Below are positions 1,077 through 37,876 of a stretch of 64,000 nt of DNA, one piece after another; position 1 is the stretch's first letter; each line of letters starts with the position of its first letter. The DNA lies in the IMG/VR virus record IMGVR_UViG_3300049740_002954, positions 1-64,000 of that record; one strand, given 5' to 3'. Both the position numbers and the translations under genes were made by a program. The stretch is from a virus. The notes beneath the pieces were generated by a model. That model saw only the letters and a program-made list of their open reading frames with translations, had not been told where the DNA came from and made no database searches.

Positions 1077-1128
1077 CCAAAGATTTACAGATAATTATAA
1101 CATAAGTCATTGATTTATAATAATTTAT
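1077..1128 (+). repeat. partial copy (R0) of the IHF-arm element
   Basis: ATAAGTCATTGA-TTT-ATAATAATTTAT preceded by CCAAAGATTTAC; lacks the CCTAGG core. Confidence 0.45.
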
Positions 1129-4088: not shown

Positions 4089-4106
4089 CCTCAAACAAAA
4101 AAAGAT

Positions 4107-4682: not shown

Positions 4683-4690
4683 AAAATTTT

Positions 4691-4768: not shown

Positions 4769-4781
4769 AAATTCCAAACGA

Positions 4782-4855: not shown

Positions 4856-4905
4856 GGTATAGAAAAATAAAATTTATAAAATTAGAAGAAAAAGTCAATT
4901 ATAAT

Positions 4906-4982
4906 GTAAGTGATTGAATAAGAACGAGTTGTGGCACGCGCCCTGGGTTATTATCATAAGTCGTTATAATTCAAAGAGTTAT
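4906..4982 (+). repeat. 77-bp IHF-arm element R1 (divergent core)
   Basis: GTAAGTGATTGA-3-AGAACGAGTTGT / 23 bp / ATAAGTCGTTAT-3-TCAAAGAGTTAT. Confidence 0.7.
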
Positions 4983-5011
4983 GTGTTATATAAATTTTTT
5001 GAAAAAAAGTG

Positions 5012-5039
5012 TTGACACATGCTAAGAATCTGTCATACT
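5012..5039 (+). promoter_or_regulatory. sigma70-type promoter, probably leaderless
   Basis: AAAAAAAGTG-TTGACA-16-CATACT; ATG at 5046. Confidence 0.8.
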
Positions 5040-5045
5040 ATAGGA

Positions 5046-5444
5046 ATGATTAGGGCAAAGCCGAACGACAAAAAGTATGAGATTAACTTTAATCAGCCTG
5101 TCTACGCTTACAAAAACCTTCATAAAGATTGTTGGAGTATTCGTCAAGATGGATTAGTTAAGGCTCACACAAAAGAACTTTCTATGCACAGTTGCGTATT
5201 CAAGGTGAGCAAGCACGGAAGAGCAAGAGTGCTAAAAGAAAAACGCAAAAATGTTCATGCAGGTATTGAGGGCTACATTGAGCCGTGGTTTATGGGTAAA
5301 TGGATTGATTCGCATCCAACGGCTCGACCTGTCACTTACAATCCATACAAGTATAAGAATTTTGTTGACAAAGACACCGAGCAAATGGTAGACTATGCTA
5401 TTGCCGTAAGATTAGAACCTAAACAAGTATTAGCAGTATTATGA
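5046..5444 (+). CDS. conserved phage hypothetical protein
   Basis: YKNLH..CWSIR...GRARVLKEKRKNVHAG...VTYNPYK motifs recalled from a widespread phage family. Confidence 0.75.
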   Translation: MIRAKPNDKKYEINFNQPVYAYKNLHKDCWSIRQDGLVKAHTKELSMHSCVFKVSKHGRARVLKEKRKNVHAGIEGYIEPWFMGKWIDSHPTARPVTYNPYKYKNFVDKDTEQMVDYAIAVRLEPKQVLAVL

Positions 5445-5674
5445 CACAAGCAAAAATCAGAGAAGACATTCTAAGCATAGTTCGAGGTAATCTTGCATGG
5501 GCGGATCCAATGTCCAAAGTATGCTTAGATCAACACGAATTGCATCCAAAAAAGTTTCCGATTGGCTCAACTTTTCAATCAGCCGAAGAAGTATTAGACG
5601 ACATCATTTGTGACTTGACATCTTTACGAGATGAGATTAGAATAGACTCATCTTTTCAATCAGCTCAACTCTAA
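5441..5674 (+). CDS. hypothetical protein
   Basis: ATGA overlap with the upstream gene. Confidence 0.7.
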   Translation: MTQAKIREDILSIVRGNLAWADPMSKVCLDQHELHPKKFPIGSTFQSAEEVLDDIICDLTSLRDEIRIDSSFQSAQL

Positions 5675-5687
5675 CAAAAGGAAAATT

Positions 5688-6113
5688 ATGGGATTAGATC
5701 AATACGCATACGCACGACCACCACGCAAACGGAATTCAGATGATGATGAAAATTTGTGCGAGTGGAGAAAACACAATCGACTACAAGGATACATGGAAAG
5801 CGTTTGGGAAAGCAAAGGTTGCCCAAACAGAAAAGTTGATGATGATGGAGAGATTATTGAAGACTTTAATTGTGTCGAGCTGCAACTAACAAGTTCAGAC
5901 ATTGATGAACTCGAATACGCAATCGACAATTTTGAATTGCCCGAATCAAATGGATTCTTTTGGGGTTCTGATTCTTACTTTTGGCACGATGAAGATGGAA
6001 AACCTTTTCCTGAAAACGAATACTATTACAAAGAACAAGACTTAAATTTTATTTCGGAAGCAAGAAAAATGTTTGACAAAGGTTATCGCATTTACTATAC
6101 TTGTTGGTATTGA
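5688..6113 (+). CDS. conserved phage protein (MGLD..Y / WRK family)
   Basis: MGLDQYAY...WRKHNRL...FNC...GFFWG...IYYTCWY. Confidence 0.8.
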   Translation: MGLDQYAYARPPRKRNSDDDENLCEWRKHNRLQGYMESVWESKGCPNRKVDDDGEIIEDFNCVELQLTSSDIDELEYAIDNFELPESNGFFWGSDSYFWHDEDGKPFPENEYYYKEQDLNFISEARKMFDKGYRIYYTCWY

Positions 6114-6115
6114 TT

Positions 6116-6316
6116 ATGGAAGAATTGCAAAACACTATTAACGATCTGCAAGCTCGACTAGCAATAGTTGGAGGAGGCAGGATCATCATTACTAGCGACC
6201 ATGTTTCGGTTCGTCTCGGAAAAGAGCATGAATACTTTGAGGTTCAAGAACAAAGTTCTTTTGACTCGCCAACCGAACCCGATGTTGAAATGTTCAAAAC
6301 CATGTATAATTACTAA
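6116..6316 (+). CDS. hypothetical protein
   Basis: ATG 2 nt after the upstream stop. Confidence 0.65.
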   Translation: MEELQNTINDLQARLAIVGGGRIIITSDHVSVRLGKEHEYFEVQEQSSFDSPTEPDVEMFKTMYNY

Positions 6317-6317
6317 A

Positions 6318-6533
6318 ATGGAAAATCAAAGCTACATTGAAGCAGTTTGCGAAGGCAAGCCATTAGAAAAGCCATCATACGATCAAGATTCAGATACTTG
6401 GAGCGTATGGTTTGAGGAGTCGGATACTCCTTATCATCCTTATTTTCACAGGGATTTAATCGAGGTTCAATTTGAATCTCAAACGGAAGCAGAGAGTGCT
6501 TATCACCACTATTCACAATCAAACGAAGGGTAG
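6318..6533 (+). CDS. hypothetical acidic protein
   Basis: Start moved to MENQSYIE, 1 nt after the upstream stop. Confidence 0.65.
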   Translation: MENQSYIEAVCEGKPLEKPSYDQDSDTWSVWFEESDTPYHPYFHRDLIEVQFESQTEAESAYHHYSQSNEG

Positions 6534-6535
6534 TT

Positions 6536-6700
6536 ATGAATAATTCTAAAATAGAAAAATTGCGTCAGCAAGTTCGTGAGATGGGTCACAATCTAGCAAT
6601 CATTGAGAAGCGTGGATTGCGTGGCAAGGATCATGTGGCGAAGAAAATCGCACACAATCTTTTGTTAGATCAGCTTTACGAGTTAGAGAAAAGAGTCTGA
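6536..6700 (+). CDS. small hypothetical protein (54 aa, below track cutoff)
   Basis: MNNSKIEKLRQQVREMGHNLAIIEKRG...ELEKRV. Confidence 0.6.
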   Translation: MNNSKIEKLRQQVREMGHNLAIIEKRGLRGKDHVAKKIAHNLLLDQLYELEKRV

Positions 6701-6725
6701 GTGATGTTATGGGGCTCTTCGGGTC

Positions 6726-6802
6726 GAATCCCGTTGAGCCCCAACGACTTACAAAACAGCCCTAGTCCGTGTGCCGGAACTCATTGATAGATAAGCATTT
6801 AC
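6726..6802 (+). repeat. 77-bp IHF-arm element R2
   Basis: GAATCCCGTTGA-3-CCAACGACTTAC / AAAACAGCCCTAGTCCGTGTGCC / GGAACTCATTGA-3-ATAAGCATTTAC. Confidence 0.8.
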
Positions 6803-6831
6803 AACTATTTTCATTTTATGCAAAAAAAGTG

Positions 6832-6964
6832 TTGACTCACCGGTATTTTCTGTCATACTAGTATTTATCAAGACGATAACCGCAAACAAAAAAAATTAGT
6901 CGAAACAAAAAAAACTTAATTGAAGAAAAAAAAGCTTGACAGATTAGACTAAATTTAGTACAAT
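6832..6964 (+). promoter_or_regulatory. two tandem sigma70-type promoters
   Basis: TTGACT-16-CATACT (6832-6859) and TTGACA-17-TACAAT (6936-6964), each with an upstream A-tract. Confidence 0.75.
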
Positions 6965-7002
6965 TAACTCATCAAAGACAATAACTCACAAAGCTAAAAA
7001 TT

Positions 7003-7755
7003 ATGACAAATAGAATTAACCTCTCAGTATGTGCCACTAAAGAATCTTCTTTCGAAGACATCAAAGGAGTCAAGACTCCCGAAGCTACTGATTCTTGGCA
7101 ACCAATCGGTCACGCTTTCCTTGTTGATCGCGTTCAAAAACAAATGCAAGACAATGGTTGGGAAATCGTTGACACTTACCATTCTCTTCATCGCTTCGGT
7201 CAACGCTACTTCGGACTCTTTCATGTTAAGAATACAGGTCAAGACAATGACGAGCGAGGCACAATCGTTGGACTTCGTAACTCTCACGACAAATGCTTTC
7301 CTGCAGGACTTTGCATGGGCAACGCTCCATTTGTTTGTTCAAACCTTATCTTCACTAATGAGGTTGTGCTTGCTCGCAGACACACAAAGAACATCTTGAA
7401 TGATCTTTCACAAGTAATCGCTCGCACTCTCGGCAAAATGACTGAGACATGGGCAAGTGATGAGCAACGCATTCAAGCATACAAAGAGCATGAACTCGGC
7501 AACGAGCAAGCTCATGATCTTGTAATCCGTGCATACCAAAACGGAGCAATTCCAAAAGCAAAAATTGCTGATGTCGTTGAGCAATGGCATAAACCCGAAC
7601 ATGATGACTTCTCACCTCGTACCATGCACTCATTGTACAATGGTTTCACTCACATTCTCAAAGGTGGAATCACCGCTTTACCAAATCGTTCACTCGCATT
7701 GCATGGTGTTCTTGACTCGGAAGTCGGCTTGACTTCTCAAGTTGCAGTTTCTTAA
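7003..7755 (+). CDS. DUF932-family protein
   Basis: GLRNSHDK...FVCSNL...RRHT, plus a T.HSLYNGFT C-terminal motif. Confidence 0.8.
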   Translation: MTNRINLSVCATKESSFEDIKGVKTPEATDSWQPIGHAFLVDRVQKQMQDNGWEIVDTYHSLHRFGQRYFGLFHVKNTGQDNDERGTIVGLRNSHDKCFPAGLCMGNAPFVCSNLIFTNEVVLARRHTKNILNDLSQVIARTLGKMTETWASDEQRIQAYKEHELGNEQAHDLVIRAYQNGAIPKAKIADVVEQWHKPEHDDFSPRTMHSLYNGFTHILKGGITALPNRSLALHGVLDSEVGLTSQVAVS

Positions 7756-7800
7756 TCATAACTAAACCTAAACCCAAACATTAACAACTATAATACTATT

Positions 7801-8031
7801 ATGAAAACACAGCCAAAACTACAAAATGTCGTTGATTCTCTCAAAGGTCGTTTCACCTCTCTTCTCGTCAAAAAAGGCGAGCAAAGAAAAGTGTTCTCCG
7901 CCAAGATTACAGGAGTGACTTCTCGCCATGTGATGTTCAAGGATACTAACGGAGGCAATCGTCGAGTCAATCGTCGCCATGTCCTTCGAGCCACTTGTGC
8001 TGACAAGACTTTTAAGAGGTCGGTGAGTTAG
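7801..8031 (+). CDS. small basic Sm/SH3-like beta-barrel protein
   Basis: 76 aa, beta-rich and basic. Confidence 0.65.
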   Translation: MKTQPKLQNVVDSLKGRFTSLLVKKGEQRKVFSAKITGVTSRHVMFKDTNGGNRRVNRRHVLRATCADKTFKRSVS

Positions 8032-8054
8032 TGATAAGCTCCAAGCGAGCAACT

Positions 8055-8082
8055 GAGCCCCCCATTTTGGGGGGCTTTTTTT
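8055..8082 (+). terminator. intrinsic terminator
   Basis: AGCCCCCCA-loop-TGGGGGGCT followed by a T-tract. Confidence 0.85.
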
Positions 8083-8140
8083 GTATCTGATAGTCAACGA
8101 GTTATGAAAACTGCCTAGGGGATTTTTATATAAGTCAAGC
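8079..8140 (+). repeat. degenerate IHF-arm element R3
   Basis: TCAACGAGTTAT / GAAAACTGCCTAGGGGATTTTTAT / ATAAGTC. Confidence 0.7.
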
Positions 8141-8173
8141 AAAAACTTTTTTATTTTTTCTGCATTTTAGGGG

Positions 8174-8201
8174 TTGACATACGCATTTATTCTGTCATAA
8201 T
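8174..8201 (+). promoter_or_regulatory. sigma70-type promoter, probably leaderless
   Basis: TTGACA-16-CATAAT; ATG at 8208. Confidence 0.8.
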
Positions 8202-8207
8202 GAAGTC

Positions 8208-8951
8208 ATGATTAAGACAACAATTCTCACTCAAGGAAACGCAAAGATAGTCAAAGGCGAAGAGCTTGGCTATGTGACAAAAGGCATCCACTTCGCTCCT
8301 GCTAGTCTCTCAGGCAATGAAGTTTGCCAATGGCGAAGTAAAGGTTGCACTGCTTCTTGTCTCAATACGGCAGGTCGTGGACGCATGAATTCAATCCAAG
8401 CATCAAGAATAGCAAAGACAAAGTTGTTCTTTGACAAACAATTCGATTTCCTTGCCAAGTTATCGAAAGAAATTTCTTCTTCAATCAAGTCAGCCACAAA
8501 GAAGGAAATGAATTCTGTTTTTCGTCTTAACCTTACGAGCGACATTTCTTGGGAATCAGTTTTCTTCAATGAAAGACAACCAAAAACAATTTTCGACAAG
8601 TTTCCGTCAATTCAATTTTACGATTATACAAAGTCATTCAAAAGAATGTGTGCTTTTCTTGACAAGCCTTTCACTAAAGATGAACAAAAATTTCCATCTA
8701 ATTACCATCTAACTTTCTCTCGTTCAGAAACAAACGATAAGAAATGTGAAATGGTTCTTGCTATGGGTGGCAATGTTGCCGTTGTGTTTCGCAATCAACT
8801 TCCAAAAACTTGGAAAGGTTATGAAGTTGTCAATGGTGATTCAAACGATTTGCGTTTCCTTGACAAACAAGGTGTGGTCGTTGGCTTAATCGAGAAAGGT
8901 ATGGCAAAGAAAGACGAAACAGGATTCGTGCAAGAAGGAATTGACTCTTGA
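8208..8951 (+). CDS. GP88-family protein (radical-SAM-like Cys motif)
   Basis: VCQWRSKGCTASCLNTAGRG, RLNLTSD, QFYDYTK, NYHLTFS, GDSNDLRFLD. Confidence 0.8.
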   Translation: MIKTTILTQGNAKIVKGEELGYVTKGIHFAPASLSGNEVCQWRSKGCTASCLNTAGRGRMNSIQASRIAKTKLFFDKQFDFLAKLSKEISSSIKSATKKEMNSVFRLNLTSDISWESVFFNERQPKTIFDKFPSIQFYDYTKSFKRMCAFLDKPFTKDEQKFPSNYHLTFSRSETNDKKCEMVLAMGGNVAVVFRNQLPKTWKGYEVVNGDSNDLRFLDKQGVVVGLIEKGMAKKDETGFVQEGIDS

Positions 8952-8982
8952 CAAAACAACTCAACTCAACTATTATTGTAAA

Positions 8983-9150
8983 ATGAATGATACTTATTAC
9001 GACTCAGCCGAAGAAATTAAACTTTCACAAAGCGAAGCTTTTAATGTGCTTGCTCAACATGGTTGCCAAGAACTTGATGAATTCTTTCAAGACATGGGTG
9101 ACAAAGAAGAGTATGATGCACAAAAAGTGTTGGAATGGTTAGGTTACTAA
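8983..9150 (+). CDS. small acidic hypothetical protein
   Basis: Follows TTGACA-17-TATTAT (8948-8976); its stop codon lies in the first arm of R4. Confidence 0.7.
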   Translation: MNDTYYDSAEEIKLSQSEAFNVLAQHGCQELDEFFQDMGDKEEYDAQKVLEWLGY

Positions 9151-9222
9151 CTCATTGAATTCCAGGTAGTTACAAAACTGCCTAGGGCCGCTTGCGTAAG
9201 TCGTTGACATAAAACAATTAAC
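9147..9222 (+). repeat. 76-bp IHF-arm element R4
   Basis: CTAACTCATTGA-3-CCAGGTAGTTAC / AAAACTGCCTAGGGCCGCTTGC / GTAAGTCGTTGA-3-AAAACAATTAAC. Confidence 0.85.
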
Positions 9223-9251
9223 AACTATTTTTAATTTTACGAAAAAAAGTG

Positions 9252-9279
9252 TTGACTTTCACTATCAATCTGTCACAAT
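9252..9279 (+). promoter_or_regulatory. sigma70-type promoter, probably leaderless
   Basis: AAAAAAAGTG-TTGACT-16-CACAAT; ATG at 9286. Confidence 0.7.
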
Positions 9280-9285
9280 TAAACT

Positions 9286-9399
9286 ATGATTAAGATTAGA
9301 AAAACCATTCTCTTCACCAAGTCAAGACCACACAAGGTCAAGGCAAAAGTGATTCACCGCAAACTCAAACACAAGGAGAAACTCGCCCATGTATCTTAA
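9286..9399 (+). CDS. 37-aa basic peptide, weakly ArfA-like
   Basis: MIKIRKTILFTKSRPHKVKAKVIHRKLKHKEKLAHVS. Confidence 0.55.
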   Translation: MIKIRKTILFTKSRPHKVKAKVIHRKLKHKEKLAHVS

Positions 9400-9634
9400 T
9401 GACCCAAGCCATCTACAAGTTCAAGACATTAGTTGCTCAACAATCGGCGATCATGTGATGGATTTTATTGATGAACGATTAGTTGAACCATTGATTCTTA
9501 ACAATCTAATGAACGCAGAAGAAGTAGAAGAATTATCTGTTGTTGGTGGAGCGATTAAGATTCTTGCAGAAAAAGCTCAAGCATACGACAATTTGTTTGA
9601 CAAAGACGGACAACTTCCTTATTCTTGTAATTGA
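9389..9634 (+). CDS. hypothetical acidic protein
   Basis: Overlapping ORF in the operon. Confidence 0.7.
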   Translation: MYLNDPSHLQVQDISCSTIGDHVMDFIDERLVEPLILNNLMNAEEVEELSVVGGAIKILAEKAQAYDNLFDKDGQLPYSCN

Positions 9635-9825
9635 TGAAACACTTGTTAACCAAATCAAATGACGGATGCTTTATCATTGTTCACTCAGAAGAGAAGACCG
9701 ACAAAAATGATCTGTTTATCTCTGAAGCGACATTCAAAAAAAACATTGAAACAAAAACATTCGTACAACACAAAAATCTAACTCACAATGAACAACCAAT
9801 CTACATCTACCATGAAGACCTTTGA
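9634..9825 (+). CDS. hypothetical protein
   Basis: TGATG overlap with the upstream gene. Confidence 0.6.
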   Translation: MKHLLTKSNDGCFIIVHSEEKTDKNDLFISEATFKKNIETKTFVQHKNLTHNEQPIYIYHEDL

Positions 9826-10174
9826 TGATTTAAACTTCACGCCTCACGCTCACGCAAAAGACTTGGGCGTCTCAGCCACCTTAACTCTCGACAATGGCTA
9901 TTCATTTAGTGTTGTCGCTAATACTGATGGTGGTGATCTGTTTTACGGCAATCACCCAAACACTTTTGAGGTTGCAATCTTCAATCAGCGAGGCGACTTT
10001 GTTCCACTCTCTGTTTCGGACGATGTGCTTGGTTGGCAAGTTCCACACCAAATCACTTCGCTAATGCATCAATTTGAGCTTGACGGAATCAAGCACGAAA
10101 AATTACTTCACGATCTTCGGAGAGACTTCAACGAAAAAGTAGTAGCAAAACACGCAGAGGAGGCAGAATTATGA
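9812..10174 (+). CDS. conserved phage hypothetical protein
   Basis: MKTFDDLNF...DNGYSFSVV...FEVAIF...DDVLGW. Confidence 0.75.
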   Translation: MKTFDDLNFTPHAHAKDLGVSATLTLDNGYSFSVVANTDGGDLFYGNHPNTFEVAIFNQRGDFVPLSVSDDVLGWQVPHQITSLMHQFELDGIKHEKLLHDLRRDFNEKVVAKHAEEAEL

Positions 10175-10347
10175 ACAGTTATCAAATACTAAAAAACGGT
10201 GAACCAATGGGCATACAAGGAACTTTTGACTACATTGTCAACGCAATACGAAACCTTGAATCGAATCTTGATCGAGCAACTCAACATTCACCTTTTACTA
10301 TTGAGCTAATAAATACTAAAGTTAAAATAACAAATACTCTTGTCTAA
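10171..10347 (+). CDS. small hypothetical protein (58 aa, below track cutoff)
   Basis: ATGA overlap; MNSYQILKNGEPMG... Confidence 0.55.
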   Translation: MNSYQILKNGEPMGIQGTFDYIVNAIRNLESNLDRATQHSPFTIELINTKVKITNTLV

Positions 10348-10394
10348 ATACCAAATACTAAATAATCAAATACAAATACCAAATACACAAATAC
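10310..10394 (+). repeat. (C/T)AAATA(C) tract
   Basis: About 10 AAATA units. Confidence 0.8.
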
Positions 10395-10457
10395 ATCATG
10401 CCATAGCAATGGAATAAGCACAAAAAAAGTAGAATAGTGCAGGAATTATATATTGTT

Positions 10458-10533
10458 GTAAGTATATTATTTTCAACGAGTTACAAAAAAACCTAGGGCC
10501 GGTTTCCTAAGTCGTTGATGTTTAAAAGGTTAG
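10458..10533 (+). repeat. 76-bp IHF-arm element R5, at the strand-switch point
   Basis: GTAAGTATATTA-3-TCAACGAGTTAC / AAAAAAACCTAGGGCCGGTTTC / CTAAGTCGTTGA-3-TTAAAAGGTTAG. Confidence 0.85.
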
Positions 10534-10563
10534 GAGAGAGGGTTGACCTCACAACCCTCTCCC
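10534..10563. terminator. hairpin at the convergence of the two early arms
   Basis: GAGAGGGTTG-ACCTCA-CAACCCTCTC. Confidence 0.55.
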
Positions 10564-10576
10564 CTGTTATTATTGA

Positions 10577-10663
10577 CTAAAACTCTTCTTTTCCTAGTTG
10601 ATCTTGCACCATTCTGATGATTCCCACGATTGAACTAATGATTAGAATTGTTGTAATTTCCAT
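10577..10663 (-). CDS. small single-TM peptide (28 aa)
   Basis: MEITTILIISSIVGIIRMVQDQLGKEEF; has its own promoter TTGACT-17-TATAAT (10700-10672). Confidence 0.7.
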   Translation of the reverse strand: MEITTILIISSIVGIIRMVQDQLGKEEF

Positions 10664-10696
10664 GTGCTTCTATTATAGCAAAGGCGAGCAACCGAG

Positions 10697-10996
10697 TCAA
10701 GCTTTTTCTTCAAAAATCTCACGCATGGACGGACTTATTGCAGTCATATCGTGCAAGTTTTCGTCATTATCGTAATCGTCATCCTCATCGGCTTTATCTT
10801 CGGCAGATGCGAATTCTTGGACTTGATCCTCGACTTCTTGTTTGGTTGCTTGAAGTAAACCATGCTCAACAACCAATTCTTGAGCGAGCTTTTCAGCTTT
10901 CAGATCTTCAATGAAAGAAGCAAGTGCAGGACTTACTTGTGCGTTTGTATTTTCGGCAATTCTGCGAATGTTTTCGAGTCTTTGTGATTCTGTCAT
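10697..10996 (-). CDS. acidic hypothetical protein
   Basis: Start moved to MTESQRL after a TTGCAA..TAATCT promoter. Confidence 0.7.
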   Translation of the reverse strand: MTESQRLENIRRIAENTNAQVSPALASFIEDLKAEKLAQELVVEHGLLQATKQEVEDQVQEFASAEDKADEDDDYDNDENLHDMTAISPSMREIFEEKA

Positions 10997-11007
10997 AAGA
11001 TTATAGA

Positions 11008-11193
11008 TTAGCAAGTTGTTTGTGGTTTTGCAAGCAAAAACTTTTCAAAAGTTTTCTGTCCCTCGCGAGCTTCTTGAATTTCGTCAAGTTGGATTTGAGC
11101 ATTGATTACCATTTGCATGGCTTCAATGTTTCCTTCGTCAGCCACAGGCGTTTGTATTCTGATGATTTCTTTTAGTTCTTGTTCTTTTGTCAT
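11008..11193 (-). CDS. hypothetical protein
   Basis: Own promoter TTGACT..TAGACT. Confidence 0.7.
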   Translation of the reverse strand: MTKEQELKEIIRIQTPVADEGNIEAMQMVINAQIQLDEIQEAREGQKTFEKFLLAKPQTTC

Positions 11194-11233
11194 AATGATT
11201 TGAGTCTAATGATTTGATTGTGAAAGTCAAGCC

Positions 11234-11440
11234 TTATTGCCAAATTGTTTCGACATCGTCATGAATTTGGGAAAAGGTGATGTCTTGCTCTTCGGCAAGT
11301 ATTCTGTCAAGGTACGGAGATCGACCTGTTTTTCTGTCGATGTTCGCAGAACGAACTCGCGGATATTCTTGGGATGGGTTATCCCAAACTTTAACGCTGT
11401 AGTGGGTTGACCACTTTTTAATTCTAATTTTCTTAATCAT
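11234..11440 (-). CDS. hypothetical protein
   Basis: Start moved to MIKKIRIK (ATGATTAAG). Confidence 0.7.
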   Translation of the reverse strand: MIKKIRIKKWSTHYSVKVWDNPSQEYPRVRSANIDRKTGRSPYLDRILAEEQDITFSQIHDDVETIWQ

Positions 11441-11489
11441 ATGTTTTAAACTTAAACTATTTTTAATGCAATTGCAAGCACAAAGTGAT

Positions 11490-11675
11490 TTATTTTTCAC
11501 TTTCTGCAAAAGATTCTTTAATTTGTTTAAGAGTCCATATATGACCCCCCACGTCTTCGTATAGTGGGGAAAACTCGTGATCCTCTAGGATTCGTGGAGA
11601 AAACTCCGCGTCAATGTAGACACGCCCTACAATTCCGAGGACGTCTTCCATGTATTCTATTAATTCAATTTCCAT
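11490..11675 (-). CDS. hypothetical protein
   Basis: ORF on the local coding strand. Confidence 0.65.
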   Translation of the reverse strand: MEIELIEYMEDVLGIVGRVYIDAEFSPRILEDHEFSPLYEDVGGHIWTLKQIKESFAESEK

Positions 11676-11725
11676 ACTTATAACCTAACACGTTTTAAAA
11701 AAAACACAAGAAAAAAGTTTAAAAG

Positions 11726-11734
11726 TTATTCACA
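11726..11734 (+). promoter_or_regulatory. DnaA-box-like 9-mer (also at 12583-12591 and 15856-15864)
   Basis: TTATTCACA fits TTWTNCACA; each lies in the context AAAGTTATTCACAA. Confidence 0.5.
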
Positions 11735-11750
11735 AAATTCAATTTAAAGA

Positions 11751-11767
11751 TTGGCACGAAACTTGTA
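11751..11767 (+). promoter_or_regulatory. sigma54-like -24/-12 site
   Basis: TTGGCACGAAACTTGTA versus consensus YTGGCACG-N4-TTGCW (one mismatch, at the -12 C). Confidence 0.4.
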
Positions 11768-11778
11768 TAAACTTTTCT

Positions 11779-11855
11779 GTAAACGCTTGAAACGCAACGA
11801 CTTCCGGAAAAACCGGAGGGTTGTTGCCCTAACTCGTTGACCATTAGGACTTTAG
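11779..11855 (+). repeat. 77-bp IHF-arm element R6 (divergent core)
   Basis: GTAAACGCTTGA-3-GCAACGACTTCC / GGAAAAACCGGAGGGTTGTTGCC / CTAACTCGTTGA-3-TTAGGACTTTAG. Confidence 0.75.
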
Positions 11856-11893
11856 AAGTCCGTTTGGTCGTGGAAGCCCCAGTCTATGTCGGG

Positions 11894-12040
11894 TTACTCC
11901 TCGAAGTCGAGGAGTGAGACCTTGTCCTGCAGGTCGCCGATTTCGTTGCGAATCGCAACGCGATCAGCAGAAGTGAGAACGGAGTCCGCGAGGACTTCGC
12001 GGAGGAGAGAGATTTTGTTTAGCATTTCTGTTTTAGTCAT
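11894..12040 (-). CDS. small hypothetical protein (48 aa, below track cutoff)
   Basis: MTKTEMLNKISLLREVLADSVLTSADRVAIRNEIGDLQDKVSLLDFEE; own promoter upstream. Confidence 0.7.
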   Translation of the reverse strand: MTKTEMLNKISLLREVLADSVLTSADRVAIRNEIGDLQDKVSLLDFEE

Positions 12041-12093
12041 ATAAGTAATCTAGCAAAGTTTTTCGGAAAAGTCAAGTTTTTTTTAATTTTTTT

Positions 12094-12315
12094 TTATTCG
12101 TCCATAAGCCATTCGTCAAGTGCGTAAGTGTCAAGATCTGGATCTTTGTAGCTCGCTCCGTCCGGAGTTGTGGGTGTGTCCATCTCTTCGAGCTTGTTCG
12201 CAAGATCTTTATAGTTTACAAATCTGCGAGAAAGCTTGTAGAGAGCTTCGTCATTTCCTAGCCAAAGAGCAACATTCCAAGTTGCCCAATTTTTCCAACC
12301 GTTGTAATTTTCCAT
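12094..12315 (-). CDS. conserved phage protein (YNGW..W.TWNVALW family)
   Basis: MENYNGWKNWATWNVALWLGNDE...TPDG. Confidence 0.8.
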   Translation of the reverse strand: MENYNGWKNWATWNVALWLGNDEALYKLSRRFVNYKDLANKLEEMDTPTTPDGASYKDPDLDTYALDEWLMDE

Positions 12316-12346
12316 AATTTGATACTGACAGGTTAAGGGTTAAAGG

Positions 12347-12529
12347 TCAAGCAAAAAAAGGATGAATCTCAATTTGCCAAGGCATAAAGTTGAAGCGATA
12401 CTGAGAACGATACAACCTGCAAGTGATTAACTTGCCAAGGCTATCTTTGCGAGCGAAGCCCACGACTTGAAAGGTTTTACCCTTGTGTGTGCCATATTTG
12501 ACACGAACTACATCATTTAACTTAATCAT
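12347..12529 (-). CDS. small KOW/SH3-like protein
   Basis: MIKLNDVVRVKYGTHKGKTFQVV; start moved after the promoter. Confidence 0.65.
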   Translation of the reverse strand: MIKLNDVVRVKYGTHKGKTFQVVGFARKDSLGKLITCRLYRSQYRFNFMPWQIEIHPFFA

Positions 12530-12613
12530 ATACCTACAAGGTAGCACAGTACGAAGCAAATTGCAAGAAAAAAGCGATAAAGTTATTCACAAAAGTGCAT
12601 TTTATTTTGTGGT

Positions 12614-12689
12614 GCAAGTTGTTGTTTTTCAATGAGTTACGAAAAAGCCTAGGGCCGAAGCCCTAAGTCGTTGATACTTAAGAGCTTAG
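12614..12689 (+). repeat. 76-bp IHF-arm element R7 (core is a minus-strand UUCG terminator)
   Basis: GCAAGTTGTTGT-3-TCAATGAGTTAC / GAAAAAGCCTAGGGCCGAAGCC / CTAAGTCGTTGA-3-TTAAGAGCTTAG. Confidence 0.85.
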
Positions 12690-13301
12690 CTTGTAGCAAA
12701 GTTGAACTTGCCGAGCATTAGATTTGGAGTTTGAGTTATCATTCAAGTAGAATCGTGCAGTCTTTAACTTTTTGTTTTCTTTCTTGACTTTTTCTCTTGT
12801 ACCTTCAAAGCCTTTGATTGGATTTGATTTATCCTTTACAAAAGCTACAATTTTCTCCATATGCTCGAAGTCTGATTCGTGCTTGCAAGGTTCGATTTTT
12901 ATGATTTGCAAGTCGCAGACATTGCAAGGCTCTTGATCGTAAAACGCGACAATCAAAACAAGTCCGTCTTTTATCTTTTGCATTTTCTTCATTGCGTCAC
13001 CCATCAAAAAGACTTTGCGTTTCTTTTCGTAGAATTTGATTTCAATGTCGTGATGGAATTCTTTTGGCAAGTTGCTACGCTTGGCAACAGATTTGGGGAT
13101 GTCGCAAGCGTGTCCGTTTTGGTCGAACAGATTTCCGTTTTCATCTCTAAAATTAAAAAGTCTTGCAACTGCCATTTCTCCTGCCTTGCCGTGCTTCTTG
13201 TTTTGTGAGCCTTGAGCGTGGACAATTCCGTTTCTTATATCACGCAGAGATTGATTAACATATGAGTGGAGATGATTCAATTGATTTTGTGCAAGTTTCA
13301 T
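12678..13301 (-). CDS. putative PD-(D/E)XK restriction-endonuclease-like protein
   Basis: HGKAGEMAV...CDIP...DIEIKF arrangement. Confidence 0.5.
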   Translation of the reverse strand: MKLAQNQLNHLHSYVNQSLRDIRNGIVHAQGSQNKKHGKAGEMAVARLFNFRDENGNLFDQNGHACDIPKSVAKRSNLPKEFHHDIEIKFYEKKRKVFLMGDAMKKMQKIKDGLVLIVAFYDQEPCNVCDLQIIKIEPCKHESDFEHMEKIVAFVKDKSNPIKGFEGTREKVKKENKKLKTARFYLNDNSNSKSNARQVQLCYKLSS

Positions 13302-13378
13302 ATTTTTATATTTTTAGCAATTAAGTTTATAGTATTTACTATATTCTATATTCTGCCCGTGTCAAGCGTGAATGCAAA

Positions 13379-13927
13379 TTATTTTAAAAAATGATTGAAT
13401 GCACTTTCAAGTTTTCCTTTGTTAAGATTTTCTTTTCTGTCGCGAGGTACGAAGTTTGACCAATGATTTCCTCCACCGCTTTGTCTCTCTTTTACATGGT
13501 CGACATTCCAAGCGTTATCAACATTTCTATTTGTCCAATTATCCCATTGCTTGCCGTCTTCGAGCTGCACATCCAAGAATATTCTAAATTGATCGAGCGA
13601 ACAGCCCAAAGCCTCTTTATTTCCTCCGAGCTTGACAACCTTGTCGGAAAAGTTCTTTCTTTCCGCGTGGGTCGTTAACATTTTCACTTTCGGATCGTGT
13701 ACAATTTTATTTCTTATTCTTTTATATTTTTCTTTTATGTTTACAATTTCTTTCTTTTTTACTTCAATCATCTTTTTGAGATTTTCAATTGATTCAAGTT
13801 CTGCTTTGATTTGTAATTGCTCTGAGATTTTAAGCATATCTCCGAGATCGAGATCTGTTCTGTTATGATCCTTTATTTTGTTTCTTCCGTGATGTTTATT
13901 CCAAGCTTCAGATATTTTGACTTTCAT
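13379..13927 (-). CDS. HNH-type endonuclease
   Basis: LGCSLDQF...WDNW...WNVDHV...NHWSNFVP....ENLNKG. Confidence 0.7.
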   Translation of the reverse strand: MKVKISEAWNKHHGRNKIKDHNRTDLDLGDMLKISEQLQIKAELESIENLKKMIEVKKKEIVNIKEKYKRIRNKIVHDPKVKMLTTHAERKNFSDKVVKLGGNKEALGCSLDQFRIFLDVQLEDGKQWDNWTNRNVDNAWNVDHVKERQSGGGNHWSNFVPRDRKENLNKGKLESAFNHFLK

Positions 13928-14000
13928 AATTTTATATTTTTAGCAATTAAGTTTATTCTTCTTTTATATATGTTTTATTTTTGTTTGTCAAACATTATTT

Positions 14001-14081
14001 TCAATCTTCTGATAAAAGATCTGACCACATAACATAAAAGACAAAAGAGAAAGAAGAGATGAGAATTATTTCTAGTATCAT
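14001..14081 (-). CDS. small single-TM peptide (26 aa)
   Basis: MILEIILISSFSFVFYVMWSDLLSED. Confidence 0.45.
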   Translation of the reverse strand: MILEIILISSFSFVFYVMWSDLLSED

Positions 14082-14097
14082 ATTTTTTTGAGTTGAG

Positions 14098-14253
14098 TTA
14101 TTTACTTGATGAGATCGGAGCATGATGCTTGCGACTTAAACGCTTTGCGATTTGCATGGCTTGGGTATGAGTTTTTGCGTTGTCTACAAGTTTGCCATTA
14201 TAGAGAACATTAAACCAACTTTGGAAGTTTGGGTTTCTGAATACATTTATCAT
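14098..14253 (-). CDS. small hypothetical protein (51 aa, below track cutoff)
   Basis: MINVFRNPNFQSWFNVLYNGKLVDNAKTHTQAMQIAKRL... Confidence 0.6.
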   Translation of the reverse strand: MINVFRNPNFQSWFNVLYNGKLVDNAKTHTQAMQIAKRLSRKHHAPISSSK

Positions 14254-14312
14254 TTTAGCAATTTCCTTTTTTAGATGTTATTCGTAAAGATTAAACTAGT
14301 TGAGGCGACCTG

Positions 14313-14537
14313 TCAAGCATTTCTTTCAACTGATTTCCAACCAAAGGCACGAACTTGATCCTCATGCCGAGCTTGTGGAAGCATGGACTTGAGCGTTTCA
14401 ATGCGAGCAAGAATCCACTTGCGAGTGTCGCCTGTGGCAGGTACAAACTTACGCAAGTCGTGATCGTAGTGGTCGCTATTAAGGCGAGCTTCGAGGCGTT
14501 CGATGTCGAATTTAATGTCTTCAGTTTTCGTAATCAT
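14313..14537 (-). CDS. hypothetical protein
   Basis: Own TTGACA promoter; probably leaderless. Confidence 0.75.
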   Translation of the reverse strand: MITKTEDIKFDIERLEARLNSDHYDHDLRKFVPATGDTRKWILARIETLKSMLPQARHEDQVRAFGWKSVERNA

Positions 14538-14600
14538 ATTTACAATCTAGTTTATTTTTCGGCAAATGTCAAACTTTATTTTACTTTTTTTTAAGTTTTT

Positions 14601-14825
14601 TTATCCGTTGTATTTGTAGTTTTTATCTTGCTCAAGAGCCTTTGCCCAAGATGCTGACTCCTCGTCATGTTGAATTGAAACGATCTTTGCATCTTTGCCG
14701 TAGTCGGCAAGTCTTTCGGCTTTGAATGTCTCAATGCATTTTACGCCTGTGGCAGTTGATCGCTCGATCTTGCCGTTGAAAGTGGATTCAATTATTATTT
14801 TCTTGTAGTTATTTGTCTTAATCAT
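14601..14825 (-). CDS. hypothetical protein
   Basis: Own TTGACT promoter; ATGATTAAG start. Confidence 0.75.
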   Translation of the reverse strand: MIKTNNYKKIIIESTFNGKIERSTATGVKCIETFKAERLADYGKDAKIVSIQHDEESASWAKALEQDKNYKYNG

Positions 14826-14895
14826 ATGTACAACATAGCATGGGAAGTGCGAAAAGTCAAGTATTATTTTACTTTTTTTAAAGTTTTTTTATATC

Positions 14896-14971
14896 GTAAG
14901 TCGTTAACACTTAACAAGTTACATAAAAACCTAGGGCCGGAGCCCTAAGTCGTTGACTGTGTGCTACTTAG
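14896..14971 (+). repeat. 76-bp IHF-arm element R8
   Basis: GTAAGTCGTTAA-3-TTAACAAGTTAC / ATAAAAACCTAGGGCCGGAGCC / CTAAGTCGTTGA-3-TGTGCTACTTAG. Confidence 0.85.
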
Positions 14972-15276
14972 AACACAAGAGGATCGGGCAACTTTGTGTT
15001 ACTTGCGAACCAATCGGATGAGTCAATTACTTGACCGTTTAGAATAAGATCGAATTTGACTTGACAAACGCCCGCATTGGCTATGCCGTTCACGCGTTCG
15101 CGTGTGGTCGGTGTGTTCCAACCTGCGAGTGACCAACGCACGAGCCCGTCGGGATCGCGTTTGACAATCGCGTTGCCATGTAGCCAAACGGTCTTGCCGT
15201 CTGTGGAAGTGTTGCCAATTGTCTTGGCTTCACCGCGTTCAAATGCTTGTTTTATTTGTGCTGTTACTTTTCGCAT
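14968..15276 (-). CDS. conserved phage hypothetical protein
   Basis: MRK...WLHGNAI...GWNTPTTRERVN family; its stop lies in the last arm of R8. Confidence 0.8.
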   Translation of the reverse strand: MRKVTAQIKQAFERGEAKTIGNTSTDGKTVWLHGNAIVKRDPDGLVRWSLAGWNTPTTRERVNGIANAGVCQVKFDLILNGQVIDSSDWFASNTKLPDPLVF

Positions 15277-15802: not shown

Positions 15803-16038
15803 ATACCTACAAGGTAACATACAAGCAAGCGAATTGCAAGAAAAAAAACATAAAGTTATTCACAATTAGAGAGCCTAACCCTACCCATTAAATGAATTCA
15901 TTTTTAAAAAGAATAGAGCTATACAGCCGGGGGGTGCCTTTTTTCAATATCAAATCTAGTATAATAAATATTAACATATTCGCGGCATCAAAAAAAATCC
16001 GGACACCATTAAAAAATAGTGTATTTATTTTTAGTAAA

Positions 16039-16767
16039 ATGCCTCGAAGACGCAAAAAACCCGAAATAACGGACGAGCAGGAGATTCAGAAAATAGAAAT
16101 TGACTTGCATAAAACAAACATAAAGCTTAAAAAAATCAGTTTAACTGAAAAACAACTGGACTTATTAAAAATCATCTTTGATAAAGAATCAAAAATAATA
16201 TTTATCAGCGGTCCAGCAGGAACAAGCAAAACATATATAGCAATATATGGTGCATTACAATTATACAATATGAATAATGATCGCGGCATTACATATGTCC
16301 GAACAATTGCAGAAAGTGGAGAGAAGAGCCTGGGAGCCTTGCCTGGAGAGATGGCGGAAAAAATCAATCCATATATGATGCCAATGAATGAAAAACTAGA
16401 TGAATTATTAATTCCTGGCCAAGCAAGTATATTAAAAAATAAAGAAATAGTAAAAGGTATGCCAATTAATTATCTTCGCGGAGCAAGTTGGCTCAATGAA
16501 GTAGTTATCGCGGACGAATCACAAAACTTTACTTTTAAAGAATTAACTACATTAATGACAAGGCTAGGAAAAGGCAGCAAACTTATTATTTGCGGGGATC
16601 CTATGCAGAGCGATATTAATGGCAAAAGTGGTTTCGCGGACATGTATTCATTATTTAACGACGAAGAAAGTGTATCTAGAGGTATTCATTGCTTCCATTT
16701 CGGCGCAGAAGATATAAAACGCAGTGAAATTCTAAAATATATAATTAAAAAACTGCAGAAAAAATGA
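16039..16767 (+). CDS. phoH: PhoH-family ATPase
   Basis: GPAGTSKT Walker A, LGALPG, YLRGAS, IADESQN, TRLG, GDPMQSD; start moved to MPRRRKK. Confidence 0.92.
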   Translation: MPRRRKKPEITDEQEIQKIEIDLHKTNIKLKKISLTEKQLDLLKIIFDKESKIIFISGPAGTSKTYIAIYGALQLYNMNNDRGITYVRTIAESGEKSLGALPGEMAEKINPYMMPMNEKLDELLIPGQASILKNKEIVKGMPINYLRGASWLNEVVIADESQNFTFKELTTLMTRLGKGSKLIICGDPMQSDINGKSGFADMYSLFNDEESVSRGIHCFHFGAEDIKRSEILKYIIKKLQKK

Positions 16768-34673: not shown

Positions 34674-37232
34674 TTATTTAACTTCAGACATTTTCATGTA
34701 TATCTTTTCGTCCATTATATTGATTGAGTCGAGAAAAACTATATCTTCGGCTTTTCTGCCATATGCAACAATTATATTTTTTTTGCACGGTGTTTTATGC
34801 TTCGATTCAAAATATCTATCGTAAAAATTGCCTCTACGAGAGTTCAATAACATTGCGTCATATCTTCCATGTTCATCAGAGATAGATAGCTTCATGTATT
34901 TATTTCCATTGCGAGAAGTTCTTTTTATGCAGTCGTCCACGACCCCAATAAATTTACCTTTTTCATCTGCATCCATAATAGATAGATCTCTAGAATCTTT
35001 TAATGCTTGATATGAGTCTATGAAGCAGGCTTTAAGGGAAGAGCTATGGCTGTATCCAAGGAGTTCTGTTTCGAAATACCAGTTTGCAAAATTTTGATAT
35101 TGTTTGTTTTTATCATAAATTTCTTTGTAGATATCATACTTTTTCTTAAAGGTTTTGAATCTAGACTCTTTCATTAAAGGTTTGCCATCATCACCCACCA
35201 AGTCTCCTTTTTTCGCATCAGCAATACAATTTAATAACTTATATTCATATTTTTCACCTAAAAGTATAAAATTTCTTTTTTCTCTATCGGTAAGGAGATT
35301 GAAAGCTTGAGCTTCTAAAACCATTAGTGATCTATTTGAGCCTTTACTCTCCAATGCTCCCGCTTGAATCAAAGCGCTCAAAACACCAATATTAAGTCCA
35401 GCTTGCTTTGCTGCGAGGAAAATATCGTACTTTGTTGGAGTTTCGCTTGAACGAAAATCTCTTAAAGACTGTAGAGACTTTTCACTAACACCTTTAATGC
35501 TGTTTAGGCCGAATCTGATGTTTTTTCCTTCGATAGAAAAATCCATACCTGATTTAGCTAAATCAGGAGAAAGAAGCTTTATTCCAAAATTAGATAATTC
35601 CTTGCACACTTTTGAAATTTCTTCTTGAGGAGACGGTTCGTACTTAGTCATTTTTAATAGCGACATAAAAAACTGCTGTGGGTAATTAAATTTTAAATAA
35701 GCTGTCCAGGCGGATAATGTTGCATATGCAAGAGAGTGAGATTTATTAAAAGAATAATTTGCGCTATCCTCCGCAACGCTCCATAAAATATGTGATATTT
35801 CTCTTGGTAAATTGTTTTGTTCAACTTTATCTTCGATTTTCTTTTTCCAGGCTGGCATTTGATCTACTTTTTTCTTTCCAACTATTCTCCTGAGCTGTTC
35901 CGCTTCATCGAGAGTAAAGCCGACTTTAACTGCCATTTGCATCAATTGCTCTTGGTAAAGAGGAATTCCTCCTGTATAATCCAATACATCACTAAAAAAT
36001 TCATGGATAACTTGCGCCTCTTCTGTTTCTGAGTAGGTTGCATAATTATCTAAAAACTCTAACGCACCTGGTCTTCCGATAGCTACCACTGCGCTCAGTT
36101 GCTCTAGGTCTTTTGGCTTGATTTTTTTGCAAACTCTATAGTTTGTATCTGATTCAAGCTGAAAAAGTCCATGGGGAGTTTTTAAAGATTGAAGTGGCTT
36201 GTATATATCTAGGTCGTTCAAATCTACAGATGAAATGTCTACGTCAATGCTATTGCAAACATCATAAATGACGCTCAAAGTTCTAAGTCCTAAAATATCA
36301 AACTTAACCATAAGTTCTGCAACCCAATTCATATCGTAACCTGTAACTAAAGCTCCATCATTAGACTTTTGAATGGGACAGATATCTTTAATTTTCTGAG
36401 AAGAAATAGCAATTCCACTAGGGTGAACGCCCGTGTTTTTGTTTAAGCCTTCTAATTTTAAGGCCACTTCAAAAACTTCAGGATTATTTGCTGTCCAGTC
36501 AGCGAATTTTTCACTTTCTTTTATGGCTGAAGAGATTGGCATAACTACTCCAAATTTCTTTGGAATTGTGTCGCTAACTTCGTTTACTTCTTGCTCGGAA
36601 AATTCACCTACAATCTTACCGCATTCTTTAATGCAAAGTTTACCGCTTAAAGTATTGAGGGTCAGAATTTTAGCTGTTCTAGATGGATGTTTTTTTTCGA
36701 TATATTCAATGACTTCAACTCTTCTTTCATACGCTATATCATTATCTACATCCGCTAAAAGACTCCCATCTAGATAAGTCGTGCCATTTTTTTCTATTTT
36801 CCTAGCTCTGCTTTTAGAGACAAAGCGCTCAAAAAATAAACTATATTTTACGGGATCTACATTTGTAACTCCGATAAGATATAAGACTAAAGATCCTGCA
36901 GCAGATCCTCTACCTGGGCCCGTTGGAATGTCATTTTCATGGCAATAGTTTAATATATCCCAATTAAGTAATATGTAATCTATAAACCCTAATTCGTCTA
37001 AGATTTTTAATTCTGATTTTGCTCGATCAAAATATTCCTTTTTGTTTTCAAATTTATCTATTCCTCTGTCATAGACTCCTTTGTGGCATAATTTACGAAG
37101 AAAATCAAAATTAGATATATCTTCTGACGCTTCAAGTATTTCATAGTATTTTTTTTCGATTTTAATTTCTGGCAGCTTCACCCCTGGAGGCGCACAGTCT
37201 TCATAGTTTGTAAATTGTTCTGTAAAATTCAT
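34674..37232 (-). CDS. dnaE: DNA polymerase III alpha, catalytic part lacking the PHP domain
   Basis: GPGRGSAAGSLV, LFFERF, DVDND, KFDILGL, YSFNKSH, C-terminal OB fold. Confidence 0.92.
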   Translation of the reverse strand: MNFTEQFTNYEDCAPPGVKLPEIKIEKKYYEILEASEDISNFDFLRKLCHKGVYDRGIDKFENKKEYFDRAKSELKILDELGFIDYILLNWDILNYCHENDIPTGPGRGSAAGSLVLYLIGVTNVDPVKYSLFFERFVSKSRARKIEKNGTTYLDGSLLADVDNDIAYERRVEVIEYIEKKHPSRTAKILTLNTLSGKLCIKECGKIVGEFSEQEVNEVSDTIPKKFGVVMPISSAIKESEKFADWTANNPEVFEVALKLEGLNKNTGVHPSGIAISSQKIKDICPIQKSNDGALVTGYDMNWVAELMVKFDILGLRTLSVIYDVCNSIDVDISSVDLNDLDIYKPLQSLKTPHGLFQLESDTNYRVCKKIKPKDLEQLSAVVAIGRPGALEFLDNYATYSETEEAQVIHEFFSDVLDYTGGIPLYQEQLMQMAVKVGFTLDEAEQLRRIVGKKKVDQMPAWKKKIEDKVEQNNLPREISHILWSVAEDSANYSFNKSHSLAYATLSAWTAYLKFNYPQQFFMSLLKMTKYEPSPQEEISKVCKELSNFGIKLLSPDLAKSGMDFSIEGKNIRFGLNSIKGVSEKSLQSLRDFRSSETPTKYDIFLAAKQAGLNIGVLSALIQAGALESKGSNRSLMVLEAQAFNLLTDREKRNFILLGEKYEYKLLNCIADAKKGDLVGDDGKPLMKESRFKTFKKKYDIYKEIYDKNKQYQNFANWYFETELLGYSHSSSLKACFIDSYQALKDSRDLSIMDADEKGKFIGVVDDCIKRTSRNGNKYMKLSISDEHGRYDAMLLNSRRGNFYDRYFESKHKTPCKKNIIVAYGRKAEDIVFLDSINIMDEKIYMKMSEVK

Positions 37233-37876
37233 TATACTTCTATTTCCCATATCATTTTTTTAAATACTTCGTAGTTAACTCTAATGTCATATAAAGCATC
37301 ATGCAATTTTTTCTCGTCAAAGTCAACATCAAAATCTTTACAGCATTGCTTTAAATTGCAGCTTAAGCCCCTCTCGATCAAATGGTTAAGTCGATATTGC
37401 CATGCTAAGAAATTATCATCTTTATCTAACTTAATTCTCTTTTTAAGCGCTTTTGCTAAACAAAGAGTATCCACAAGGTTTTTTGTATAACTAAAATCAG
37501 ATTTTGCATTTGAATCTATAAGTTTTCGATGTAGGTTATGCATATAAACATCAAAGCCAAGTAAGTTATGCCCAACCTTAAGGTAAGAGTCGTCATAAAG
37601 GTATTTCTCGAAGTGCTCTAGCGCAGCTTTGGGGCAAGAAGCTTTTTTCTTATATTTTGCTTCGGTAAACCCAGTAATCTTTGCTGCGTCAGGAGATACA
37701 TTTAGTTCGTCCCATTTTAACCAATAATCTTTTTGTTCAATAATTTCATTATTTTCTATAACAAGAAATGCTAACTGCCATGGTTTATTATTTGATACAA
37801 GATTTAAATTACATGTTTCATAATCAAACAGTAAATACTTTTTATTTTTTTGAAATCTAAGTAGTGATTCTTTCAT
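37232..37876 (-). CDS. DEDDh 3'-5' exonuclease (Pol III epsilon-like)
   Basis: FDYET, GHNLLGFD, DTL, HDALYD. Confidence 0.88.
   Translation of the reverse strand: MKESLLRFQKNKKYLLFDYETCNLNLVSNNKPWQLAFLVIENNEIIEQKDYWLKWDELNVSPDAAKITGFTEAKYKKKASCPKAALEHFEKYLYDDSYLKVGHNLLGFDVYMHNLHRKLIDSNAKSDFSYTKNLVDTLCLAKALKKRIKLDKDDNFLAWQYRLNHLIERGLSCNLKQCCKDFDVDFDEKKLHDALYDIRVNYEVFKKMIWEIEV

Follow-up and report, generated by a model that had tools for sequence, protein, structure and literature searches.

The array of elements upstream of phoH

The stretch of DNA examined here, referred to below as the window, comprises the first 64 kb (64,000 nt) of the IMG/VR virus record IMGVR_UViG_3300049740_002954, a record of 81,074 bp that is an estimated 60% complete and whose G+C content is 34.7%. 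Between positions 4906 and 14972, the early genes of this phage are separated by eight copies (R1 to R8) of a four-armed intergenic element. We lean, with moderate confidence, towards reading these elements as composite terminator/promoter junctions that separate early transcription units, in the manner of the promoter-early stem-loops (PeSLs) of T4-like phages. An initial annotation of the same DNA had described the array and proposed either an integron-like cassette-shuffling system or a DNA architecture bent by IHF; its observation is partly confirmed by our analysis, and its interpretation is partly supported.

The record encodes PhoH, a large terminase, a Lon-like protease, ribonucleotide reductase, a DnaB-like helicase, a primase and a UvsX-like recombinase, together with a DnaE-like polymerase. 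The terminase shares no more than 28% identity with its counterpart in any cultured phage, and a megablast search of positions 4000–16000 against cultured phages returned zero matches. Judged from these sequences, the phage that carries the elements is not T4-like and is unrelated to T4. Parts of the stretch were found in 20 of the 24 listed sequencing runs, each represented by its assembled contigs only; the top 17 (share of at least 0.36) are seawater or marine metagenomes, and four runs were compared in detail. About nine of the 42 early open reading frames (ORFs) reach a Pfam match at E≤1e-5, and the region is rich in small genes of unknown function.

All eight copies proposed by the initial annotation were confirmed, with a measured spacing of 835–2282 bp that agrees with the 0.8–2.3 kb given there. 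A profile built from the eight copies recovered all of them at E≤1.9e-9, a value that is circular for its own members; copies in relatives, which had not been used in building the profile, scored E values of 1e-16 to 1e-12. The annotation had seen no copies in the other 48 kb of the window, and the profile found none elsewhere in the full 81,074-bp record (next best match, E=1). Four matches to the core CCTAGGGCCG with no more than one mismatch are present where 0.49 would be expected, and they lie only in R4, R5, R7 and R8; the arm 11-mer, at the same tolerance, occurs ten times in the 81-kb record, always between positions 1103 and 14946. A repeat finder grouped four of the copies as an 88-nt family. 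A ninth, partial copy had been suggested near the left end of the window; it proved to be a single arm without significance (E=1.8).

The four-armed geometry is sound as a description, but not as two independent hairpins: in a family alignment of 144 distinct copies, the element forms a single quasi-palindrome, about 90 bp long and with CCTAGG at its centre, in which arm 1 is opposite arm 4, arm 2 is opposite arm 3 and an A-run faces a T-run. In distant lineages the outer arms are kept, both inner arms are altered together and the core is GC-rich.

The element is conserved across a clade of relatives and restricted to their early arrays. A search with the exact core-plus-arm pattern found three other viral contigs, with four, eight and two copies, and one relative, 72–88% identical, has all eight copies at orthologous positions. 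A search anchored on phoH returned 78 loci, and the family profile identified 196 non-overlapping copies in 38 of 79 sources. Every one of these lies within 10 kb upstream of phoH, with seven to nine copies in a full array. In two long relatives, of 125.7 kb (93% complete) and 140 kb, all nine strong copies fall in one stretch of about 10.5 kb; no strong copy was found in these two genomes outside it, where the other matches had E≥0.059. Several short contigs of metagenome-assembled genomes (MAGs) filed under various bacterial labels (L122, L140, L129, L144 and L128) also carry full four-arm elements, with GC-rich cores; these contigs probably represent phage sequences from the same wider family that ended up in bacterial bins.

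Gene ends, promoters and terminator-like hairpins at the elements

For family copies between + strand genes, a rightward sigma-70-like −35 hexamer is present 17–39 bp beyond arm 4 in every case (43 of 43), and none of the 30 copies at convergent junctions has such a promoter. The initial annotation had placed each copy where one gene block ends and a new promoter begins. In the window, this holds for R1, R2, R3, R4 and R8, with the −35 hexamer 19–36 bp beyond the element in the direction of transcription (Table 1), but the rest conform less well: R7 is followed by a repeated promoter-like sequence of family D7, R5 marks the convergence point of the gene blocks and the situation of R6 is unclear. 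The D7 sequences form a second repeat class of 78 nt, 85% identical between their copies at 12515–12592 and 15788–15865, with a TTGCAA-type upstream hexamer, and are possibly a different promoter class serving some leftward genes.

Gene ends also lie close to the elements. In 36 of 73 cases the upstream − strand gene has its stop codon −12 to +18 nt from arm 4, and three of the copies in the window hold a stop codon within an arm. An independent scan listed the cores of R5, R7 and R8 (three of the eight copies) as terminator-like on the − strand, matching the direction of transcription at these places; the reverse complement of these cores is a GC hairpin followed by a T-run.

The core is the asymmetric part of the element, and a uniform orientation of all copies had been proposed. 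The orientation is clear for R5 to R8 and moderately so for R2 and R4, but R1 and R3 cannot be oriented and the rule fails across the family: at 17 loci, copies between − strand genes are oriented ‘+’ in 47 cases and ‘−’ in three, whereas those between + strand genes divide into 18 and 25.

The hairpin itself is interchangeable. In two relatives the stop codon and the promoter on either side of the R4 position are the same, but a poly-G/poly-C hairpin module stands there instead of the element. Three relatives that lack the element have, in the corresponding region, repeated modules made of a poly-G/poly-C hairpin and a promoter.

Table 1. Elements and associated features in the window
Feature	Position	Strand	Remarks
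Proposed partial copy	1077..1128		One arm-like 11-mer with one mismatch to the arm; outside the family
manA RNA	3532-3739	+	Rfam RF01745, 87.6 bits; early region
R1	4906..4982		Degenerate; family profile 28.4 (+) vs 29.3 (−) bits, orientation undecidable
Sigma-70-like promoter	5012..5041	+	30 bp beyond R1; repeated promoter families D2/D3
R2	6726..6802	+	Degenerate; left arm replaced by a GC-rich stem resembling a tRNA T-arm; 45.9 vs 36.9 bits
Sigma-70-like promoter	6832..6859	+	30 bp beyond R2; repeated
Poly-C/poly-G intrinsic terminator	8055..8077	+	Separate, immediately before R3
R3	8079..8155		Truncated, without the second palindrome; preceded by a separate terminator; 26.3 vs 24.5 bits
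Sigma-70-like promoter	8174..8201	+	19 bp beyond R3; repeated
R4	9147..9223	+	Arm 1 holds the stop codon of upstream gene 8941..9150
Sigma-70-like promoter	9252..9279	+	29 bp beyond R4; conserved in relatives in which another hairpin replaces R4
R5	10458..10534	+	Where + and − gene blocks converge; core terminator-like, − strand, 10513-10490
Hairpin terminator	10536..10561	+	Directly after R5, at the convergence point
R6	11779..11856	+	Variant core
R7	12614..12690	+	Arm 4 holds the stop codon of − strand gene 12678..13301; core terminator-like, − strand, 12667-12648
Direct repeat (35 bp), left copy	13296..13330		Leader and start codon; family D9, 97% identity
Direct repeat (35 bp), right copy	13922..13956		Family D9
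Sigma-70-like promoter, leftward	14832..14860	−	36 bp beyond R8; repeat family D4
R8	14896..14972	+	Arm 4 holds the stop codon of − strand gene 14968..15276; core terminator-like, − strand, 14951-14928
PhoH gene	15892..16767		Anchor gene in the search for relatives
UvsX-like gene	62538..63644

Some further features of the region deserve mention. The GC-rich stem that stands in place of the left part of R2 (6706–6743) encloses a hairpin resembling a tRNA T-arm (GGGTCGAATCCC), followed by an acceptor-like strand; ARAGORN called no tRNA at this stem. In the relative L043, a T-arm-like sequence lies within an extra promoter-bounded insert beyond the position equivalent to R4. We also considered the 76–77-nt unit as a known RNA and rejected the idea, because ARAGORN found no tRNA and Rfam matched only the manA RNA, with no family at the elements. 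Runs of AAATAC-type short repeats (families D8, D15 and D17) occur at 4770–4854 and 10311–10394, a short distance before R1 and R5, and such runs also precede the R5-equivalent element in relatives. Lastly, the DnaE-like polymerase is apparently split: one polymerase family matches the two ORFs 38376..39134 and 34674..37250 on the − strand, and an exonuclease-subunit-like ORF and another ORF lie between these parts (region 34674–39134).

Gene exchange between the elements

The two halves of the array differ in the stability of their gene content. When the 17 loci were written as strings of gene families, the left half was syntenic; in the right half, beyond the convergence point, the same small genes recur in varying combinations and positions, often with several genes in one inter-element segment. 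At least one cassette has been gained or lost. A 274-bp unit, consisting of a 62-codon acidic ORF and its promoter, is present in three loci, in the arrangement element–gene–element, and absent from five. Both of its breakpoints lie inside the arm motif, and the five loci of the loss form retain a fused ‘1.5’ element. This was the only event with breakpoints in the arms that we observed, and it is confined to one position.

A comparison of gene content across relatives, as the initial annotation had suggested, yielded 768 distinct homology breakpoints from 17 relatives, of which 12.9% fall within elements where random placement gives 7.6±0.9%. This enrichment, the 274-bp gain or loss and the exchange at R4 favour the cassette idea in part, but most of the shuffling concerns single genes inside inter-element segments and takes place at repeated promoter or leader sequences. 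The gene 13379..13927, for example, is bracketed by the pair of 35-bp direct repeats and is missing from three relatives; the gene 14601..14825 is bracketed by a promoter repeat in comparison with close relatives; and in one relative an insertion of 739 bp is found at the promoter that follows R4. Three joints in the assembled contigs are recorded here as observations and were not used as evidence: a joint from 13302 to 13936 (one run) repeats the repeat-bracketed gene loss, a joint that ‘goes back 857’ (two runs) matches the layout of the relative G001, and a joint from 15919 to 11845 occurs on a single contig at a depth of four.

We propose a model in which each junction, followed along the direction of transcription, would consist of the gene end, the quasi-palindromic hairpin, an A/T-rich stretch, a sigma-70-like promoter and the next gene. 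The hairpin would terminate or attenuate transcription arriving from upstream, or cap the upstream mRNA, so that each unit would be insulated. Because some 90 bp of similar sequence recur every 1–2 kb, the general recombination machinery of the phage, represented by the UvsX-like gene, could use the element copies and the repeated promoters as crossover points, and crossovers at these places would yield the shuffling in the right half of the array.

Readings of the arms and comparison with PeSLs

Several observations weigh against our reading of the elements as terminator/promoter junctions and crossover points. Between − strand genes, a leftward promoter lies within 70 bp in only 22 of 50 family copies. 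A strict hairpin-plus-T-run pattern is passed by 23 of 131 family copies (21 leftward, two rightward) and failed by 108, so termination is not a demonstrated common property. The breakpoint enrichment, which also shows in the 42% that fall within 100 bp of an element against 25% at random, is measured against a random placement not restricted to intergenic DNA, and 58% of the breakpoints are more than 100 bp from any element. The arms pose a further difficulty. RNAalifold returned no consensus structure for the 144 copies, and the long hairpin pairs in 73.4% of cells compared with 73.3% in column shuffles. With pairing at the level of shuffles, the alignment indicates that the arms are conserved as sequence and not by compensatory change, which a pure stem-loop role fails to explain. 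In addition, columns 30 and 65 hold the same base in 115 of the 144 copies (GG in 81, CC in 34), a conserved mismatch. The conservation of the arms may reflect a binding protein or gene conversion between copies.

One alternative is a role at the RNA level: the complete quasi-palindrome would be transcribed and fold into a hairpin of about 35–40 bp, which would either be a target of RNase III cleavage or shield the 3′ end of the upstream message; the early mRNA of phage T7 offers a parallel in its intergenic RNase III processing sites. Single-copy folds of many relatives do form one long hairpin (−25 to −42 kcal/mol), its covariation is slightly above that of shuffled alignments (0.169 versus 0.158, with 3 of 500 shuffles reaching the observed value) and G–T pairs outnumber A–C pairs by 369 to 236. 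A model of two local hairpins was rejected, as its covariation is below that of shuffles (499 of 500 reach the observed value; 73.7% of cells pair versus 74.5% when shuffled), and what little covariation the alignment contains favours the global dyad over two hairpins. The RNA role nevertheless has to contend with the lack of an RNAalifold consensus and with the 27% of cells that do not pair. Where the core is a terminator, just half of the element would be transcribed, and whatever G–T excess exists is on the + strand, the antisense strand wherever a copy sits among − strand genes. We consider a role as RNA quite unlikely.

The conservation of arm sequence without compensatory change would be expected if the arms were operator sites on double-stranded DNA, that is, four 12-mers of alternating orientation, recognized by a protein of the phage or its host, which would either turn the neighbouring early promoters on or off or stand in the way of RNA polymerase as a roadblock. 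The −35 hexamer lies at a fixed distance from the element, the array is restricted to the early region, and arm variants specific to a lineage change in concert within one genome (L048; L083–L086), all of which accord with this idea. The search for a protein partner argues in the other direction, since none of the 42 early ORFs has a DNA-binding Pfam domain and no HU/IHF domain was found in the record of the window or in the two long relatives, although control genomes were positive in the same searches. The only early protein that tracks the element is encoded by 9389..9634 on the + strand, the first gene after the R4 promoter, which is detected in 15 of 15 loci with the element and two of nine without. 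This 81-aa acidic protein is 41–45% identical among relatives while neighbouring genes are 62–86% identical, and is therefore a fast-evolving early protein. With its acidic character, its rapid evolution and its weak, diverged homologues in element-less loci, it was rejected as a trans-acting factor. At R4, moreover, a plain GC hairpin substitutes for the element with the promoter unchanged, so binding would be dispensable at that site. Taken together, we regard the operator explanation as unlikely.

The more specific proposal that IHF bends the elements did not hold. The initial annotation had noted exact matches to the IHF consensus WATCAANNNNTTR in R7 and in the supposed partial copy; both matches exist (12664–12676 and 1103–1115), but the latter does not lie in a copy of the element. 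The consensus is thus exact in one of the eight copies, and the window holds 16 matches against 10.3±3.1 expected.

The arm palindrome also occurs outside phages. A 25-bp form, TAAGTCGTTG-N3-6-CAACGASTTA, was found at 76 loci (L118–L193) of very diverse bacterial genomes and MAGs, including Verrucomicrobiota, Planctomycetota, Lentisphaerota, Gemmatimonadota, Fibrobacter and Treponema. In 11 of 60 scanned loci it lies 3–15 nt beyond the 3′ end of a tRNA or tmRNA, and at a twelfth the tRNA is 75 nt away; other contexts are mixed and include an integrase (once), an insertion sequence transposase (seven copies in one chromosome), methylases and a parA–parB spacer. In a sample of one phylum, the palindrome occurred in five of 401 genomes, compared with one of 401 for a reversed control, so it is not a phylum-wide regulon motif. 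Its rarity in this sample and its heterogeneous contexts led us to reject the idea of a host operator. Many of the bacterial matches may be chance hairpins, and they identify neither the host of the phage nor a binding factor.

The integron-like interpretation of the initial annotation holds that each palindrome is a simple site for a dedicated recombinase of a site-specific cassette system. The resemblance to integron attC sites lies in the two pairs of inverted short arms, in the array of small genes of unknown function and in the hybrid site left after cassette loss: the one cassette gained or lost has its breakpoints in the arms and leaves one hybrid palindrome. Each palindrome also lends itself to a division into two 10-bp arms with a 7-bp centre between them, and the conserved mismatch lies between the inner arms. 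However, in line with what the annotation had reported for the window, no tyrosine or serine recombinase is apparent: neither Phage_integrase (PF00589) nor Resolvase (PF00239) domains were found in any of three records, namely that of the window and the relatives of 140 kb and 125.7 kb, the last being 93% complete, although control genomes were again positive. The units lie on both strands and have their own promoters, unlike promoterless one-way cassettes. In attC sites the structure is conserved and the sequence variable, whereas here the arms are conserved in sequence and the structure is not. Element positions are also stable between relatives, down to all eight in the relative that is 72–88% identical, against a single cassette event at a single position. 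An integron-like system therefore seems to us highly improbable.

A related and still doubtful idea, for which we see only a slim chance, is that the four 12-mer arms are recognized by a specialized protein from outside the known families, which would cut and rejoin, or pair, the palindromes; the early region would in that case be a true cassette array borne by the phage. If so, each mobile unit would carry one hybrid palindrome and a promoter of its own, the system would be an integron analogue that is recombinase-independent or uses a new recombinase, and the palindromes found sporadically in distant bacteria, beside tRNA genes and genes of mobile elements, would be the trace that it has left.

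Bacterial repetitive extragenic palindromic (REP) sequences and bacterial interspersed mosaic elements (BIMEs) are likewise intergenic, pair inverted palindromic units and have a central motif; they lie downstream of genes and have been linked to the protection of mRNA 3′ ends and, in some forms, to IHF binding. The phage array shares this general plan; it differs in being confined to 10 kb and in matching the IHF consensus in one of eight copies only.

The closest counterpart that we found is the PeSL. The passages of Arbiol et al. 2010 (PMC2839356) and Comeau et al. 2014 (PMC4122927) that concern PeSLs describe them as conserved intergenic motifs of about 100 bp, built from a stem-loop, in many cases poly-G/poly-C, together with an A/T-rich stretch and a sigma-70-like early promoter; the motifs sit in the hyperplastic regions of T4-like phages and act both as terminators and as crossover points for the gain, loss and replacement of small genes. 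Measured against these descriptions, the element and its promoter form the same composite intergenic repeat of stem-loop, A/T-rich stretch and sigma-70-like early promoter. Both repeats are found in gene-variable regions crowded with small genes of unknown function, both bracket insertions and deletions between close relatives, and in both cases the general recombination of the phage itself is proposed as the motor. Sister lineages of the phage studied here even carry the poly-G/poly-C form. The differences are that this phage is unrelated to T4, and that the simple poly-G/poly-C hairpin is replaced by a far more elaborate quasi-palindrome of about 90 bp with four sequence-conserved 12-mers around CCTAGG. 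Terminator activity and mini-circles have been reported for PeSLs, whereas the junction described here is known from its sequence. Given the shared layout on the one hand, and the unrelated phage, the four-arm stem-loop and the conserved arms on the other, we file the element as a variant of the PeSL. A literature search for similar phage intergenic repeats returned no match besides the PeSL; the search was limited, and we do not claim that such repeats are absent from print.

Overall, the conserved sequence of the arms could point to an unknown binding factor, and the four-armed and poly-G/poly-C forms, which swap between identical flanks, amount to a natural experiment on what such a junction requires. 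The presence of a PeSL-type layout in an unrelated clade of large marine phages suggests that it represents a general way in which lytic phages organize and exchange their early accessory genes.

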